DNA from: Alphaproteobacteria bacterium
GTDB taxonomy: Bacteria; Pseudomonadota; Alphaproteobacteria; UBA8366
Reading direction: 5' to 3'
Length of the DNA stretch: 64,000 nt
Assembly: GCA_965228695.1 (NCBI GenBank)
Contig: CBDDIB010000002.1
Span: 3,417,089-3,481,088 of the forward strand
The notes under the pieces are model-generated. The model saw only the letters and a list, made by a program, of their open reading frames with translations. It did no database searches and had not been told where the DNA came from. A program made the position numbers and the translations under genes. Shown piece after piece: positions 24,266 to 27,285 of the stretch. Position 1 is the first letter of the stretch; each line of letters starts with the position of its first letter.

Positions 24266-25177
24266 ATGGCGACCCGACTGCCGCCACTGAACGCCCTCCG
24301 GGCATTCGACGCATCGGCCCGACACCGCAGTTTCACGCGCGCGGCCGAAGACTTGAGCGTGACCCCGGCGGCGATCAGCCATCAAATCAAGGGGCTTGAG
24401 GAGTTTCTCGGCGCAAAACTGTTCCGGCGGGCCAAGGGGACACTCATGCTCACCGAAGCGGGGCAACGCATCATGCCCGGCGTCCGCAAGGGGTTTTCCG
24501 CCTTCGAGGAGGCGATGGAGAATTTCGGGCTGTACGACCAGACGGGACAGATCAACGTGGCCGTTACACCGTCCTTCGGTGCGAAATGGCTGATTCCGCG
24601 CTTGGAACACTTCAACGCGGCGCATCCGGAGATCGATATCCGGATTTCGACCACGATGGAGATCATCGATTACGAGCAGGAAGGGGTCGACATCGGCATC
24701 CGCTTCGGGCGTGGCGAATATGCCGGCTTGGTGGTCGAACCGCTGCTCAGTTCCGAGGTCACGCCCGTCTGCAGTCCGGAGCTCTTGCAGGGCGACCACC
24801 CAAAGCTCGAGAAGCCGAGCGATCTGCGGCATTTCACGCTATTGCACGATGAGAGCCCCTTACTCGATGAGGCGCATCCGAACTGGGCCATGTGGTTGTT
24901 GGCGGCAGGCGTCACCGACGTGGATGCGAGCCATGGCATGCGCTTCGACAGTGCAAGTTCGGCCATCAGCGCCGCGATCGAAGGGGTCGGGGTCGCGCTC
25001 GGGCGCACCGCCCTTATCGGCCGCGATATCGCCGCCGGCCGGTTGGTGCGGCTGTTCAAGCTCAGCTTGCCGATCCGCTTCGGCTATTACGTCGTCTATC
25101 CCGAGCGCAGCCGCAATCGCCCGAAGGTCATGACCTTCCGGGACTGGCTGTTCGAGGAAGTCCGCGAGCCGGGCTAG
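24266..25177 (+). CDS. LysR-family transcriptional regulator (GcvA/AmpR-like subgroup)
   Basis: N-terminal HTH LPPLNALRAFDASARHRSFTRAAEDLSVTPAAISHQIKGLEEFLG, followed by a LysR substrate-binding domain. Confidence 0.9.
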   Translation: MATRLPPLNALRAFDASARHRSFTRAAEDLSVTPAAISHQIKGLEEFLGAKLFRRAKGTLMLTEAGQRIMPGVRKGFSAFEEAMENFGLYDQTGQINVAVTPSFGAKWLIPRLEHFNAAHPEIDIRISTTMEIIDYEQEGVDIGIRFGRGEYAGLVVEPLLSSEVTPVCSPELLQGDHPKLEKPSDLRHFTLLHDESPLLDEAHPNWAMWLLAAGVTDVDASHGMRFDSASSAISAAIEGVGVALGRTALIGRDIAAGRLVRLFKLSLPIRFGYYVVYPERSRNRPKVMTFRDWLFEEVREPG

Positions 25178-26232
25178 GGTTTCTCCCGGCGCGCCGCGAC
25201 ATCCGCCGCCAACTGCTCTAGGACCGCTTCGGACGCCTGCCAATCGATGCAGCCGTCGGTGATGCTCTGGCCATAGGTTAGCTCTTGCCCGGGCACCAAA
25301 TCCTGGCGGCCGCCGACCAAATTGCTCTCCGCCATGACCCCGATGATCCGCCCGTCGCCGTCGGCGACCTGGCGGCCGACATCCGCGAGGACGGCCGGCT
25401 GGTTTTCCGGCTTTTTCGCGCTGTTTGCGTGGCTCGCATCGATCATCACCGCCGGATTCAGCCCGGATTTCACCGCGATCGCGCAGGCCTCGTTGACGCT
25501 GTCGGCGTCGTAATTCGGCTCTCGGCCGCCGCGCAGGATGATGTGGCAATCCTTGTTGCCGGCGGTGGCGGCGATGGCGGACCGGCCGTCCTTGGTCACC
25601 GCCATGAAATGATGCGGATGGGAGGCCGATCCCACGGCATCGACCGCGATTTGGACGTTGCCGTTGGTGCCGTTCTTGAACCCGACCGGGCAGGACACGC
25701 CGGATGCAAGCTCGCGGTGAACCTGGCTCTCCGTCGTGCGGGCGCCGATCGCGGCCCAGGACACGAGATCCGCGATGTATTGCGGCGTAGTCATCTCGAG
25801 GAACTCGCAGCCCGCCGGCAGGCCGAGCGCGTTGATGTCGAGCAACAGTTTCCGGGCCAGGCGCAGCCCTTGCTCGATCTCGAAACTGCCGTCCAAATTC
25901 GGGTCGTTGACCAGGCCTTTCCAGCCGACCGTGGTGCGCGGTTTCTCGAAATAGACCCGCATGATGATCTCCAGCGTATCGGCATGGCGGTCGCGCAGCG
26001 CGGCCAGGCGCTCAGCGTAGTCCATGGCGGCCTCGGGATCGTGGATCGAGCAGGGGCCGATAATCACGGCGAGCCGGTCGTCTTGCCGGTGAATGATGCG
26101 CTGGATCGCGCTGCGCGCCTCGGTCACGGTCCGGGTGACCGCGGTGTCGCGCGGCAGTTCGCCCATCACCTGGGCCGGGGTGTCGAGGGCCTTGATTTCG
26201 CGGATGCGAATATCGTCTGTCGTGTCGAGCAC
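25174..26232 (-). CDS. 3-deoxy-7-phosphoheptulonate (DAHP) synthase, class I (AroF/G/H type)
   Basis: 352 aa from the GTG at 26232, behind AAGGAG. Class-I pattern (IIGPCSIHD, KPRT..GWKG, GARTTESQ.HRE..SG, GFKN, ID.SHANS). The 550-aa track ORF is an upstream extension. Confidence 0.95.
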   Translation of the reverse strand: MLDTTDDIRIREIKALDTPAQVMGELPRDTAVTRTVTEARSAIQRIIHRQDDRLAVIIGPCSIHDPEAAMDYAERLAALRDRHADTLEIIMRVYFEKPRTTVGWKGLVNDPNLDGSFEIEQGLRLARKLLLDINALGLPAGCEFLEMTTPQYIADLVSWAAIGARTTESQVHRELASGVSCPVGFKNGTNGNVQIAVDAVGSASHPHHFMAVTKDGRSAIAATAGNKDCHIILRGGREPNYDADSVNEACAIAVKSGLNPAVMIDASHANSAKKPENQPAVLADVGRQVADGDGRIIGVMAESNLVGGRQDLVPGQELTYGQSITDGCIDWQASEAVLEQLAADVAARREKP

Positions 26233-26270
26233 GGCGTAAACTCCTTGTCTGTGCGTCACGCCGGCGGCAC

Positions 26271-26296
26271 AAAAAAACCGCCAGGGACTGGCGGTT
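26271..26296 (-). terminator. Intrinsic terminator hairpin inside the DAHP synthase leader (candidate attenuator)
   Basis: Minus-strand AACCGCCAG-UCC-CUGGCGGUU running into U7. It ends 38 nt upstream of the DAHP synthase GTG. Confidence 0.65.
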
Positions 26297-26320
26297 CTGA
26301 GACTTTCTTCGGTCTTTGCT

Positions 26321-26404
26321 TTAGACCAAAAGCATCCCTTCCGCCGCCGAAGGCTTCGGATAACCAAAAAACCAAAAATAGGACGTGGCGGTTGAGTGAT
26401 GCAT
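26321..26404 (-). CDS. Candidate aromatic-rich leader peptide (27 codons)
   Basis: MHHSTATSYFWFFGYPKPSAAEGMLLV*. Six of seven consecutive codons are Tyr/Phe/Trp. It lies between the promoter region and the leader terminator. No clear SD precedes it. Confidence 0.5.
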   Translation of the reverse strand: MHHSTATSYFWFFGYPKPSAAEGMLLV

Positions 26405-26553
26405 GGACGGTTAAATAGTACCGACTGGCCGGTTTGTCCATGGGTCTTTTGGCGAACAGCCCGATAGGGCTTTTCTTTACGCGGTTGGCGTAGGGCCCGG
26501 CTGCCCGTATAAGATGCCGCCCAGCCGATAACACGAACCGACCAAGGACGACA

Positions 26554-27285
26554 ATGAGCGCAAACGCCAAACCCTTCGATCTGACCCCGCCGAAAGAGGC
26601 GGATGTCGCCACATCCGTCGACGACGCGATCGCCTCCCGGCGGTCGATCCGGGCCTTCCTGCCGACCCCGGTGCCGCGTCCCCTGATGGAGCATATCCTG
26701 GAAGTGTCGTCGCGCGCGCCGAGCGGCACAAACATGCAGCCGTGGAAGGTCTATGTGGCGGCCGGGGCCACCAAGGAACGGTTGTCGCAAGCGATCGTCG
26801 ATGCGTTCGAGGCGGGCGAAGAGCACAAGCGAAGCTGGAAATATTATCCGGACGAATTCTTCGAGCCTTACAAGTCACGCCGCCGCAAGGTCGGTTGGGA
26901 CCTCTACGGCACGCTTGGCATCGAGCGCGGCGAAACCGAGAAGATGAAGGCGGCGCGGGCCCGAAACTACGTCTTCTTCGACGCGCCGGTCGGCTTGATC
27001 TTCGCCATCGACGACAAGCTGGAGATCGGCAGCTGGCTGGACTACGGCATGTTCATGGAAAACATCATGATCTCCGCCCGCGGCCATGGCCTGCACACGA
27101 TCCCGCAGGCGGCGTTCAGCGACTATCACGCGATCATCCGCGAGCATCTGGGCATTCCCGAGGATCACACGATCATCTGCGGCATGTCGGTGGGTTATGC
27201 GGATTTGGACGCGCAGGTGAACCAGTTCAGCACCGAGCGGGCGCCGGTCGAGGGATTCGCGACCTTTATCGATTATCCGGCTTAG
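26554..27285 (+). CDS. Nitroreductase-family protein
   Basis: 243 aa. RRSIRAF...PSGTNMQPW signature and C-terminal nitroreductase fold pattern. Confidence 0.9.
   Translation: MSANAKPFDLTPPKEADVATSVDDAIASRRSIRAFLPTPVPRPLMEHILEVSSRAPSGTNMQPWKVYVAAGATKERLSQAIVDAFEAGEEHKRSWKYYPDEFFEPYKSRRRKVGWDLYGTLGIERGETEKMKAARARNYVFFDAPVGLIFAIDDKLEIGSWLDYGMFMENIMISARGHGLHTIPQAAFSDYHAIIREHLGIPEDHTIICGMSVGYADLDAQVNQFSTERAPVEGFATFIDYPA

Follow-up and report, generated by a model that had tools for sequence, protein, structure and literature searches.

The class-I DAHP synthase gene in a 64-kb stretch of alphaproteobacterial DNA (the whole of which is called the window here) is very probably coupled to the supply of charged aromatic tRNA by a ribosome-mediated (leader-peptide) transcription attenuator. 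We put the probability of this reading, which is based on sequence comparison, at about 85%. An attenuator reading aromatic codons ahead of this gene had been proposed in a sequence-only reading of the same DNA, and the proposal was strongly supported here by conservation at approximately 140 loci from several alphaproteobacterial orders. DAHP synthase is the enzyme that commits carbon to the shikimate pathway. To our knowledge, the transcriptional control of its gene is essentially uncharted in alphaproteobacteria, because these bacteria are without the TyrR/TrpR paradigm of E. coli.

Leader, terminator, gene and promoter in the window

The leader ORF is located on the minus strand at 26321..26404, from the ATG at 26404 to the TAA at 26323-26321, and consists of 27 codons and a stop, encoding MHHSTATSYFWFFGYPKPSAAEGMLLV. 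Its codons 9-15 (26360..26380, minus strand) form the putative regulatory run UAU UUU UGG UUU UUU GGU UAU (Tyr Phe Trp Phe Phe Gly Tyr), six of the seven being aromatic. Direct reading of the minus strand confirmed this ORF and its run as first described, and all coordinates given in the sequence-only reading were correct. A seven-codon stretch with at least six aromatic residues was found only this once in the six frames of the 64-kb window, against a mean of 0.03 in shuffled windows. The leader RNA of the window was also more stably folded than its own shuffles (z = -3.1).

The intrinsic terminator occupies 26271..26296 on the minus strand and is composed of region 3 (AACCGCCAG, 26296-26288), a UCC loop, region 4 (CUGGCGGUU, 26284-26276) and a U7 tract that runs to 26271. 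As had been claimed, its GC-rich stem of 9 bp begins exactly 24 nt past the leader stop, and the end of the U-run lies 38 nt before the GTG start of the gene with the AAGGAG motif. The hairpin has a predicted energy of -16.6 kcal/mol. A simple terminator scan did not list it, though it is plain in the sequence, the folds and the alignment, probably because an extension of the stem takes in part of the U-run.

The regulated gene, at 25174..26246 on the minus strand with its Shine-Dalgarno sequence AAGGAG (26246-26241) included, starts with GTG at 26232, encodes 352 aa and ends with a stop codon at 25176-25174. Its identification as a class-I (AroF/G/H-type) DAHP synthase was borne out by a match of 514 bits to TIGR00034, with the N-terminus at GTG 26232 and a fitting Shine-Dalgarno spacing. 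The score for the AroG equivalog was 539 bits, below the cut-off of 568, and that for the AroH subfamily was 487 bits, above the cut-off of 463, scores that do not fix the feedback specificity of the enzyme.

Upstream of the leader, a candidate promoter was located at 26413..26441 on the minus strand, with a -35 element ATGGAC (26441-26436), a 17-nt spacer and a -10 element CTATTT (26418-26413), in the register CTTGAC-N17-CTATAT. Only 8 nt (26405-26412, minus strand) separate it from the leader ATG. In all 80 sequences compared, consisting of the window and 79 genome loci, an xxTGAC-N17-CTATAT box was present 7-9 nt before the leader ATG, with a gap of 8 nt in 68 of them, and the same box was found upstream of the Labrys and Paracoccus leaders. 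We take this box to be the alphaproteobacterial sigma-70 consensus. A scan for E. coli-type promoters found none upstream of the leader, and the promoter became visible only by comparison among relatives. Of 140 loci, 3 had a Shine-Dalgarno-like motif ahead of the leader ATG, and 133 had one ahead of the DAHP synthase start. The promoter position predicts, for each of the 80 sequences, a transcription start that coincides with the leader AUG or lies no more than 1-2 nt from it, and the leader mRNA is probably leaderless. The sequence-only reading had noted the missing Shine-Dalgarno sequence of the leader as a caveat. No such sequence was found upstream of the leader ATG in the window, and its absence would be explained by the leaderless start, with which the promoter geometry agrees in 80 of 80 cases; the absence is therefore not a weakness.

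Conservation of the element among relatives

The element was detected at approximately 140 loci in Bradyrhizobium, Devosia, Labrys and MAGs labelled Rhodospirillaceae, and in a diverged form in Paracoccus. The conserved parts are the promoter, the leader ORF with its Tyr/Phe/Trp run, a GGCGG motif within the ORF, and the GC-rich hairpin followed by a U-run. The spacing is conserved as well: GGCGG follows the run after 11 nt, the stop codon comes a further 20 nt on and CCGCC another 26 nt on, and the U-run and the gene are about 37 nt apart. One copy was present in 79 of 80 genome loci, the 80th being truncated, and all metagenome loci with more than approximately 160 nt of upstream sequence carried the element, except for one chimeric contig. 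The element was always found upstream of a DAHP synthase gene (100% linkage in several orders). The comparison of orthologous 5' regions that had been put forward together with the attenuator proposal thus found the short ORF, the aromatic run and the hairpin all conserved in relatives.

The element was not found at beta- and gammaproteobacterial homologues of the DAHP synthase gene, and the upstream regions of Vibrio and Salinivibrio aroG had no aromatic leader ORF, terminator or covariance-model match. A covariance-model search of the 64-kb window gave no further copies. Membership in the Rfam family Phe_leader (RF01859) was considered and rejected: the family aligned over its full length to the window at 32 bits (E = 0.002), below the gathering score of 55, and gave no match at E <= 1 in seven relatives. 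No other Rfam leader family matched.

Homologous leader ORFs at these related loci were 23-28 codons long. Among 92 unique leaders the codon run occurred in 30 variants, with the exchanges staying within Tyr, Phe and Trp. Every run contained at least one Phe and at least one Tyr codon; Trp was found in 87 of the 92 leaders, mostly as a single codon per run, and was missing in five. The Phe codons of these leaders were predominantly TTT (177 TTT and 15 TTC, 92% TTT), in comparison to 75 TTT and 368 TTC (17% TTT) in the genes of the window. Such a strong preference for the rare UUU codon would sharpen the response to Phe-tRNA. The leader peptide had no family in NCBIfam, and a look-up of the exact sequence returned only 'hypothetical protein', an annotation occasionally given to the leader ORF by gene callers.

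Competing RNA segments and the proposed mechanism

The terminator helix was well supported in the alignment, with 92.8% of the alignment cells pairing and a compensatory exchange of G-C and A-U (25 versus 11 sequences), and its covariation was equalled by none of 500 shuffles. RNAalifold, when unaided, recovered this helix only.

For the alternative pairings, the sequence-only reading had pointed to the hexamer CCGAAG, which occurs twice around a single CUUCGG. This arrangement is indeed present in the window, but as a switch it is confined to the subclade of the window, and it was discarded as the core of the mechanism as it has already disappeared in L003, Bradyrhizobium, Devosia and the other relatives. 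The conserved competing segments are instead regions 1 and 3 of the CCGCC type and regions 2 and 4 of the GGCGG type. Region 1 (CCGCC, 26387..26391, minus strand, leader nt 14-18) lies within AACCGCCACGUCC, a near-copy of the region 3 sequence AACCGCCAGUCCC, and is predicted to pair with region 2. Region 2 (GGCGGCGG, 26341..26348, minus strand, leader nt 57-64, in the codons Ser-Ala-Ala-Glu) is a copy of the 3' arm of the terminator inside the ORF and the predicted 5' strand of the antiterminator. Its GGCGG showed little or no variation among 38 diverse leaders while the encoded residues differed (SAAE, LAAG, LAEV, PAEA), and a C-rich region 1 and a G-rich region 2 were present on either side of the codon run in all lineages. 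In the window, the upper part of the predicted antiterminator (26299..26338, minus strand) is formed by GGGAU (26338-26334) with GUCUC (26303-26299). This helix closes an apical hairpin CUUUUGGUCU/AGACCGAAG (26331-26307, minus strand) that contains the leader stop codon. A hairpin enclosing the stop codon was rejected as a conserved element: it was present in 75 of 76 distinct sequences, yet was no more stable than in shuffles.

In the 38-sequence alignment, 88% of the cells of helix 2:3 and 69% of those of helix 1:2 paired, the latter being about the same as in shuffles, and neither helix had significant covariation because their cores never vary. As a duplex, 1:2 had a median z against shuffles of -3.3 across lineages and of -1.0 in the window; in Paracoccus it forms a strong hairpin of 10-12 bp. 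The perfect complement between regions 2 and 3 extends over 8 bp in Bradyrhizobium, L003 and Labrys, which was reached by 0.7-2% of shuffles, and was also significant in Paracoccus, where 2:3 was judged by direct complement tests, the model alignment displacing region 2 of this genus by about 6 columns. For the window and for Devosia the perfect complement is just 5 bp, equalled by 42% of shuffles, and the modelled antiterminator of these two is predicted to rely on extra helices that are individually without support. Concerted changes were seen in single lineages. The main family has CUGGCGG, CCGCCAG and CUGGCGG as regions 2, 3 and 4; L136 has CCGGCGG, CCGCCGG and CCGGCGG; and Paracoccus has CCGCUG as region 1 followed by CCAGCGG, CCGCUGG and CCGGCGG. 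It is thus conserved complementarity and a few such lineage-specific changes, rather than statistical covariation, that point to the antiterminator and the anti-antiterminator.

We folded the window leader with the ribosome placed at different positions. Without a ribosome 1:2 was formed, a ribosome stalled on codons 9-13 gave 2:3, with the upper antiterminator as the minimum free energy structure, and a ribosome at the stop codon left region 3 free. The Paracoccus leader behaved in the same way. When region 4 was included, the terminator was the equilibrium structure of the window in every ribosome state, and the switch must therefore be kinetic. With the ribosome at the stop codon, region 2, 18-25 nt upstream, is left uncovered, which means that re-formation of 1:2 or a steric argument is needed for that state.

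In the proposed mechanism, transcription would begin on the leader AUG or beside it. A 70S ribosome would initiate on the leaderless 5' end and trail the polymerase. A shortage of Tyr-, Phe- or Trp-tRNA would make this ribosome stall in the run, that is, in the loop of the 1:2 hairpin. Region 1 would then be blocked, and region 2 (GGCGG) could pair with region 3 (CCGCC), the 5' arm of the terminator, with further helices extending the pairing; the terminator would be prevented and the polymerase would enter the DAHP synthase gene. When all three tRNAs are plentiful, the ribosome would pass region 2 and reach the stop codon, melting the upper antiterminator. Region 2 would be either shielded or, once the ribosome has passed, taken up again by region 1, and the 3:4 terminator would form and release a transcript of approximately 134 nt. 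If the leader is not translated, 1:2 and 3:4 would form and transcription would terminate.

One possibility, which we regard as unlikely, would add to attenuation rather than replace it: the leader RNA of approximately 134 nt, or the aromatic-rich peptide, could also act in trans, for example on other shikimate or aromatic genes. An example of such a function is given by rnTrpL, an attenuator-derived, leaderless trans-acting sRNA described as conserved in Sinorhizobium, Agrobacterium and Bradyrhizobium in the account of PMC6614838. The leader is very highly conserved in nucleotide sequence over its entire length; the diversity at four-fold degenerate sites within Bradyrhizobium was 3.7 times below that of aroG, making synonymous sites about four times more conserved. 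In addition, a conserved GC motif directly after the U-run, called region 5 here (GCCGCCGGCG, 26259..26268, minus strand), is complementary to region 4 (median dG -11.8 kcal/mol and median z -2.3 in 85 distinct sequences) and has no part in the attenuation model. However, the overlapping constraints of coding and RNA structure are sufficient to account for the conservation, and the N- and C-terminal parts of the peptide differ by lineage while the RNA motifs persist.

It is much less probable that the leader is a small-protein or sRNA gene with its own terminator and that the peptide is the product, the DAHP synthase gene being transcribed by constitutive read-through without tRNA sensing. The strong terminator (with its U7) does dominate the equilibrium fold, and the peptide is almost invariant within Bradyrhizobium and is sometimes called a hypothetical protein. 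Such a gene would, however, hardly be linked without exception to one and the same gene over several orders at a fixed spacing, with a promoterless interval of about 37 nt between its U-run and the start of that gene. Outside the codon run, moreover, it is the RNA motifs (CCGCC, GGCGG) that are conserved rather than residues, the exchanges in the run retain nothing beyond aromatic character, the bias towards a rare codon suits a stalling sensor, and the peptide matched no protein family. Least credible of all is that the terminator is under another control, by a TRAP-like protein, a ligand-binding RNA or a TnaC-like arrest, with the ORF incidental or acting through its peptide: the alternative helices are without statistical covariation and the Trp followed a few residues on by Asp/Pro is, as we take it, loosely reminiscent of TnaC, but there is no conserved structured domain besides the terminator and no match to an Rfam riboswitch or protein-binding leader, arrest by a free amino acid would turn a biosynthetic gene on at high levels of its product, the reverse of the expected logic, and the residues after the run vary between lineages while the ORF persists, with its frame and start, throughout the relatives compared.

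Relation to known systems

The ribosome-mediated attenuator proposed here belongs to a kind of system that is already known, from aroR-aroF and from the leaderless trpL, and it reveals no new mechanism. Tentatively, and with somewhat less than even odds, we suggest that the element represents an undescribed and ancient alphaproteobacterial RNA family, found in Hyphomicrobiales, Rhodobacterales and Rhodospirillaceae-labelled MAGs. Entry into the shikimate pathway could be governed at the level of transcription mainly by this element, in the role that falls to the TyrR and TrpR repressors in enterobacteria. The charging of all three aromatic tRNAs would be integrated in a single leaderless leader peptide, and the released RNA of approximately 134 nt might act in trans like rnTrpL. 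If this is true, the control of aromatic entry would have a simple answer in Bradyrhizobium, Devosia, Labrys, Paracoccus and many uncultured relatives, a multivalent aromatic attenuator would join the textbook set, and a further example of a leaderless leader peptide would be gained. A covariance model could be used to annotate the element, which is now missed by Rfam and by the pipeline of NCBI. In practical terms, removal of the element should deregulate the aromatic flux in engineered alphaproteobacteria.

The element was not found in Rfam, NCBIfam or the literature searched, although it may have been predicted earlier elsewhere. It was not mentioned in a paper on Bradyrhizobium small ORFs and ncRNAs, aro genes were not mentioned in the attenuator survey of Naville and Gautheret, no aro leader was found in a paper on actinobacterial attenuators, and a paper on Proteobacteria regulons covered only TyrR and TrpR (PMC5343134). 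E. coli regulates its DAHP synthase genes through the repressors TyrR and TrpR and not by attenuation (PMC5343134). Attenuators have been predicted upstream of the Vibrio operon of a class-I-alpha DAHP synthase gene (aroF-type) with tyrA, as listed on the Merino prediction website cited in PMC1173090. As with the present element, a terminator and an antiterminator are predicted before a proteobacterial class-I DAHP synthase gene; they are a computational listing, in which no leader peptide is described as far as the citing paper conveys.

The pheA leader (pheL) and the gammaproteobacterial trp, his, leu, thr and ilv attenuators resemble the present element in their codon run, the intrinsic terminator and the alternative 1:2, 2:3 and 3:4 pairings, of which 1:2 and 2:3 are predicted here. 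The enterobacterial leaders differ in having a Shine-Dalgarno sequence, and pheL controls a different gene. Leaders that each respond to more than one amino acid are known from thr (Thr, Ile) and ilv (Ile, Leu, Val).

A single attenuator sensing all three aromatic tRNAs on a DAHP synthase gene had been considered unusual in the sequence-only reading. Attenuation of such a gene by a mixed aromatic leader has a precedent in aroR-aroF of C. glutamicum (PMC11802643, PMC4046766). There aroR, with the codons Phe-Tyr-Phe, precedes aroF, and ribosome stalling raises transcription, according to Neshat et al. 2014 as cited in PMC11802643; the leader was first noted in PMC4046766. The two systems share a short mixed-aromatic leader ORF before a DAHP synthase gene, the gene function and very probably the class of mechanism. 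The likeness is functional, since C. glutamicum belongs to another phylum and aroR has three regulatory codons and no Trp, in comparison to 5-7 codons, usually with one Trp, here. The present element is further distinguished by its probably leaderless start and its four-segment CCGCC/GGCGG design. From the codons we infer that one leader may sense all three aromatic amino acids; the presence of a codon is in itself no proof of sensing, because the Tyr-containing aroR is reported in the cited accounts to respond to Phe and not to Tyr.

The closest alphaproteobacterial counterpart in design is trpL/rnTrpL, located before trpE(G) in Sinorhizobium, Agrobacterium and Bradyrhizobium, with an RpoD-type promoter, a transcript that starts from the leader AUG and a terminated RNA of approximately 110 nt (PMC6614838). 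Like trpL, the present element is very probably an alphaproteobacterial leader-peptide attenuator, and the leaderless start documented for S. meliloti trpL is predicted here. In contrast to the present element, trpL reads Trp only and controls anthranilate synthase rather than the entry to the pathway, and trans-acting functions of its RNA and peptide have been demonstrated.

Leader, terminator and occurrence among relatives

On the minus strand of the window an open reading frame from ATG 26404 to TAA 26321 encodes, read directly from the sequence, the leader peptide MHHSTATSYFWFFGYPKPSAAEGMLLV*, in which codons 9-15 (UAU UUU UGG UUU UUU GGU UAU; 26380-26360, minus strand) form a Tyr/Phe/Trp-rich run. 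The hairpin AACCGCCAG-UCC-CUGGCGGUU followed by U7 (26296-26271, minus strand) begins 24 nt past the leader stop. A 352-aa ORF, preceded by AAGGAG, starts with GTG at 26232 (minus strand), 38 nt beyond the U-run. With 514 bits to TIGR00034, its product is a DAHP synthase of class I (AroF/G/H type), though isoenzyme models did not settle its inhibiting amino acid. Coordinates and sequence statements of the sequence-only reading, which had proposed an attenuator here, were all correct on direct reading of the minus strand. The aromatic run of the leader was the only seven-codon stretch with at least six aromatic residues in the six frames of the 64 kb (mean 0.03 in shuffled windows), and the leader folded better than its shuffles (z = -3.1). 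As the upstream neighbour, a nitroreductase-like gene (26554-27285, plus strand), is divergent, the hairpin does not terminate any gene lying before it. Another, small terminator-like hairpin, AGCCCGATAGGGCT followed by TTTCTTT (26458-26471, plus strand), sits between the two divergent genes, some 80 nt ahead of the nitroreductase-like one, with no plus-strand gene upstream of it. Elsewhere in the window, an FMN riboswitch (RFN element, RF00050; 58818-58969, minus strand) was detected with 114.8 bits, well over the gathering score.

The element was compared in 80 genome loci and 80 metagenome loci with enzymes 70-94% identical to that of the window, from two unclassified alphaproteobacterial MAGs closely related to the window, MAGs labelled Rhodospirillaceae, many Bradyrhizobium species and Devosia. 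Wherever the upstream DNA reached far enough, it showed an ORF of 23-28 codons that begins with ATG and carries a Tyr/Phe/Trp run, and after it a T-run whose distance to the DAHP synthase gene is fixed. The element was missing from a single genome locus, where the sequence ends about 157 nt before the gene. Thirty-eight diverse leaders were used to build a covariance model, which had a single match in the window (105.8 bits; runner-up 10 bits) and exactly one strong match per related locus (65-131 bits for full-length matches), always on the strand of the gene and directly upstream of it. The element was also present in Labrys miyagiensis, and Paracoccus (Rhodobacterales; enzyme 58-61% identical) has a diverged copy before its DAHP synthase gene (26-38 bits, leader MSQQMFYTASFYWFRCIQRGRVAV). 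Homologues in Burkholderia, Cupriavidus, Vibrio and Salinivibrio were without an aromatic leader ORF, terminator or model match. Based on this pattern of presence and absence, the element is an alphaproteobacterial family tightly tied to the DAHP synthase gene and spans Hyphomicrobiales, Rhodobacterales and MAGs labelled Rhodospirillaceae.

Weak reverse-strand matches (21-24 bits) in the related loci L038, L050, L020, L096, L147 and L129 overlap the terminator, the motif after it and the gene start; they stem from the near-palindromic CCGCC/GGCGG repeats and are no second element. In L096 (metagenome contig WNFI01092837.1) the 3' two-thirds of the leader are kept, intact from the run onward (…YYWYFSYDSSLAVGGSRSI*), about 140-175 nt before the gene start at 965, but in place of promoter, ATG and region 1 of the leader stands the 3' portion of a CDS that is unrelated, membrane-protein-like and in another frame. 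This fusion is probably an assembly chimera or a natural rearrangement; if the latter, the leader would depend on upstream translation. In a plasmid collection, about 350 conjugative Escherichia plasmids and some from Klebsiella and Salmonella carry a distant class-I DAHP synthase homologue (e.g. NZ_MH422552.1, 74872-75825; 45.8% identity to the window enzyme).

Codon run and probable leaderless start

Translation of the 92 unique leader ORFs gives 70 different peptides, in which the run takes 30 forms, such as YFWYFSY, FYWYFSY, YYFWFFGY, YFFYYFSY and YFAYYFTF. Changes within the run swap Tyr, Phe and Trp among themselves, and each run retains at least one Phe (mean 2.1) and at least one Tyr (mean 2.7); most runs have just one Trp codon, and 5 of 92 have none. 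For Phe the leaders use TTT 177 times and TTC 15 times, compared with 75 and 368 times in the window genes, a bias towards a rare codon that would be apt for a sensor relying on stalling. In the rest of the leader ORF nucleotides are kept and residues are not: a C-rich segment (CCGCC, or GCCACCAGC in Bradyrhizobium) lies ahead of the run, and an invariant GGCGG, a median of 11 nt past it, encodes SAAE, LAAG, LAEV or PAEA depending on lineage. Diversity at four-fold degenerate sites in 60 Bradyrhizobium loci was 0.069 in the leader and 0.255 in the first 120 codons of aroG, the DAHP synthase gene (3.7 times less in the leader). The regulatory codons of the run all begin with U in the leaders of all loci (UAU/UAC, UUU/UUC, UGG). 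The i6A37 modification, which depends on MiaA, is generally present in tRNAs that read UNN codons; a response of the attenuator to miaA status would therefore be expected, as with trp and phe attenuators. A 2026 paper deals with MiaA and trp attenuation in Pseudomonas.

All 80 sequences analysed (the window and 79 genome loci) have an xxTGAC-N17-CTATAT box, the alphaproteobacterial RpoD-type consensus, with 7-9 nt between its end and the leader ATG (8 nt in 68). The window box is ATGGAC-N17-CTATTT (26441-26413, minus strand), and Labrys and Paracoccus have the same arrangement. Transcription would accordingly start at the A of the leader AUG or 1-2 nt before it. Of 140 loci, 133 have a Shine-Dalgarno-like motif before the DAHP synthase start and 3 have one before the leader ATG. 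Promoter geometry and the rarity of the motif before the leader together point to a leaderless mRNA as the most probable template for leader translation, which would explain why the sequence-only reading saw no convincing Shine-Dalgarno sequence before the leader AUG. Such an mRNA has been documented for another attenuator, trpL of Sinorhizobium meliloti (PMC6614838), and in B. japonicum 192 start sites coincide exactly with start codons (PMC4842269).

Alternative pairings and predicted mechanism

The leader RNA can be divided into four regions, with 1:2 as predicted anti-antiterminator, 2:3 as predicted antiterminator and 3:4 as terminator. For the terminator 92.8% of alignment cells pair, a compensatory G-C/A-U exchange separates 25 from 11 sequences, and the covariation score was reached by none of 500 shuffles; RNAalifold, unaided, predicted this helix only. 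Region 2, the in-ORF GGCGG (26348-26341, minus strand), is a copy of region 4, and region 1 (AACCGCCACGUCC in the window) nearly repeats region 3 (AACCGCCAGUCCC). Structures were predicted for the window leader cut short of region 4, a ribosome being represented by a 29-nt footprint. Without a ribosome 1:2 formed and region 3 was free; with a ribosome stalled on codons 9-13, 2:3 formed (GGCGG:CCGCC), extended by GGGAU:GUCUC and an apical hairpin with the stop codon in it; with the ribosome at the stop codon region 3 was free. Paracoccus gave the same three states in a more trp-like layout, with region 1 directly after the run. When region 4 was included, the terminator was the equilibrium structure in all ribosome states of the window, so the decision would have to be kinetic, as in other attenuators.

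Support for the alternative pairings is weaker than for the terminator. Across the 38 aligned sequences 88% of cells pair in the 2:3 core, which never varies and therefore gives no covariation; for 1:2 the figure is 69%, about equal to shuffles. Independent support comes from concerted, lineage-specific changes: regions 2, 3 and 4 read CUGGCGG, CCGCCAG and CUGGCGG in the main family (region 1 varies), CCGGCGG, CCGCCGG and CCGGCGG in locus L136, and CCAGCGG, CCGCUGG and CCGGCGG in Paracoccus (region 1 CCGCUG). The longest perfect complement between regions 2 and 3 was compared with 5000 shuffles of the ORF segment. It was 8 bp in Bradyrhizobium (L004; 33 shuffles as good), a Rhodospirillaceae MAG (L003; 37) and Labrys (L161; 112), and 7 bp in Paracoccus (L163; 179) and L136 (675); the 5 bp of the window (2101) and of Devosia (L047; 3380) were not significant. 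A helix enclosing the stop codon occurs in 75 of 76 sequences, yet is no more stable than in shuffles. The CCGAAG/CUUCGG pairings put forward by the sequence-only reading exist in the window but are not conserved among relatives.

Classical ribosome-mediated attenuation of the DAHP synthase gene is kept as the best reading, with a probability of roughly 85%; what the sequences show directly are the parts of the element and how far they are conserved, the terminator, and the complementary segments. We infer the transcription start, leader translation, folding order, what happens at the stop codon and, most of all, how the element responds to each amino acid. When charged Tyr-, Phe- or Trp-tRNA is scarce, the ribosome would stall and occupy the loop of 1:2, so that region 2 could pair with region 3 ahead of the synthesis of region 4, and with 2:3 formed the polymerase would continue into the DAHP synthase gene. 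A ribosome clearing the run would move through region 2 to the stop codon, where it would not cover region 2, which lies 18-25 nt upstream; the terminator would form and a transcript of about 134 nt be released.

Directly after the U-run lies a conserved GC-rich motif, region 5, which reads GCCGCCGGCG in the window (26259-26268, minus strand) and, at the equivalent position, UUGGCCGGCAGG in Bradyrhizobium. Its complementarity to region 4 has a median dG of -11.8 kcal/mol and a median z of -2.3 over 85 distinct sequences from the window and related loci. Because transcription would terminate before reaching it, the classical model gives it no part; in the read-through mRNA it might form a 4:5 hairpin whose loop contains the U-run, or it might alter access to the DAHP synthase Shine-Dalgarno sequence.

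Comparison with known systems

Ribosome-mediated attenuation is a textbook kind of control, and the element is a real, strongly conserved regulatory element that forms a new family within this well-known kind, of concern mainly to the fields of alphaproteobacterial gene regulation and aromatic metabolism. Rfam Phe_leader aligned end to end to the window with 32 bits (threshold 55) and had no match in the seven relatives examined, and membership was rejected on these grounds. The leader peptide has no NCBIfam model, and gene callers that called the ORF labelled its product 'hypothetical protein'. No description of the element in alphaproteobacteria was found in the literature searched; an earlier computational prediction, e.g. 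in the survey of proteobacterial attenuators by Vitreschak et al. 2004, is possible. The nearest functional precedent is aroR-aroF of C. glutamicum, where aroR (Phe-Tyr-Phe), upstream of aroF, reportedly responded to Phe and not to Tyr (PMC11802643, PMC4046766). The nearest architectural relative is the leaderless trpL/rnTrpL of rhizobia.
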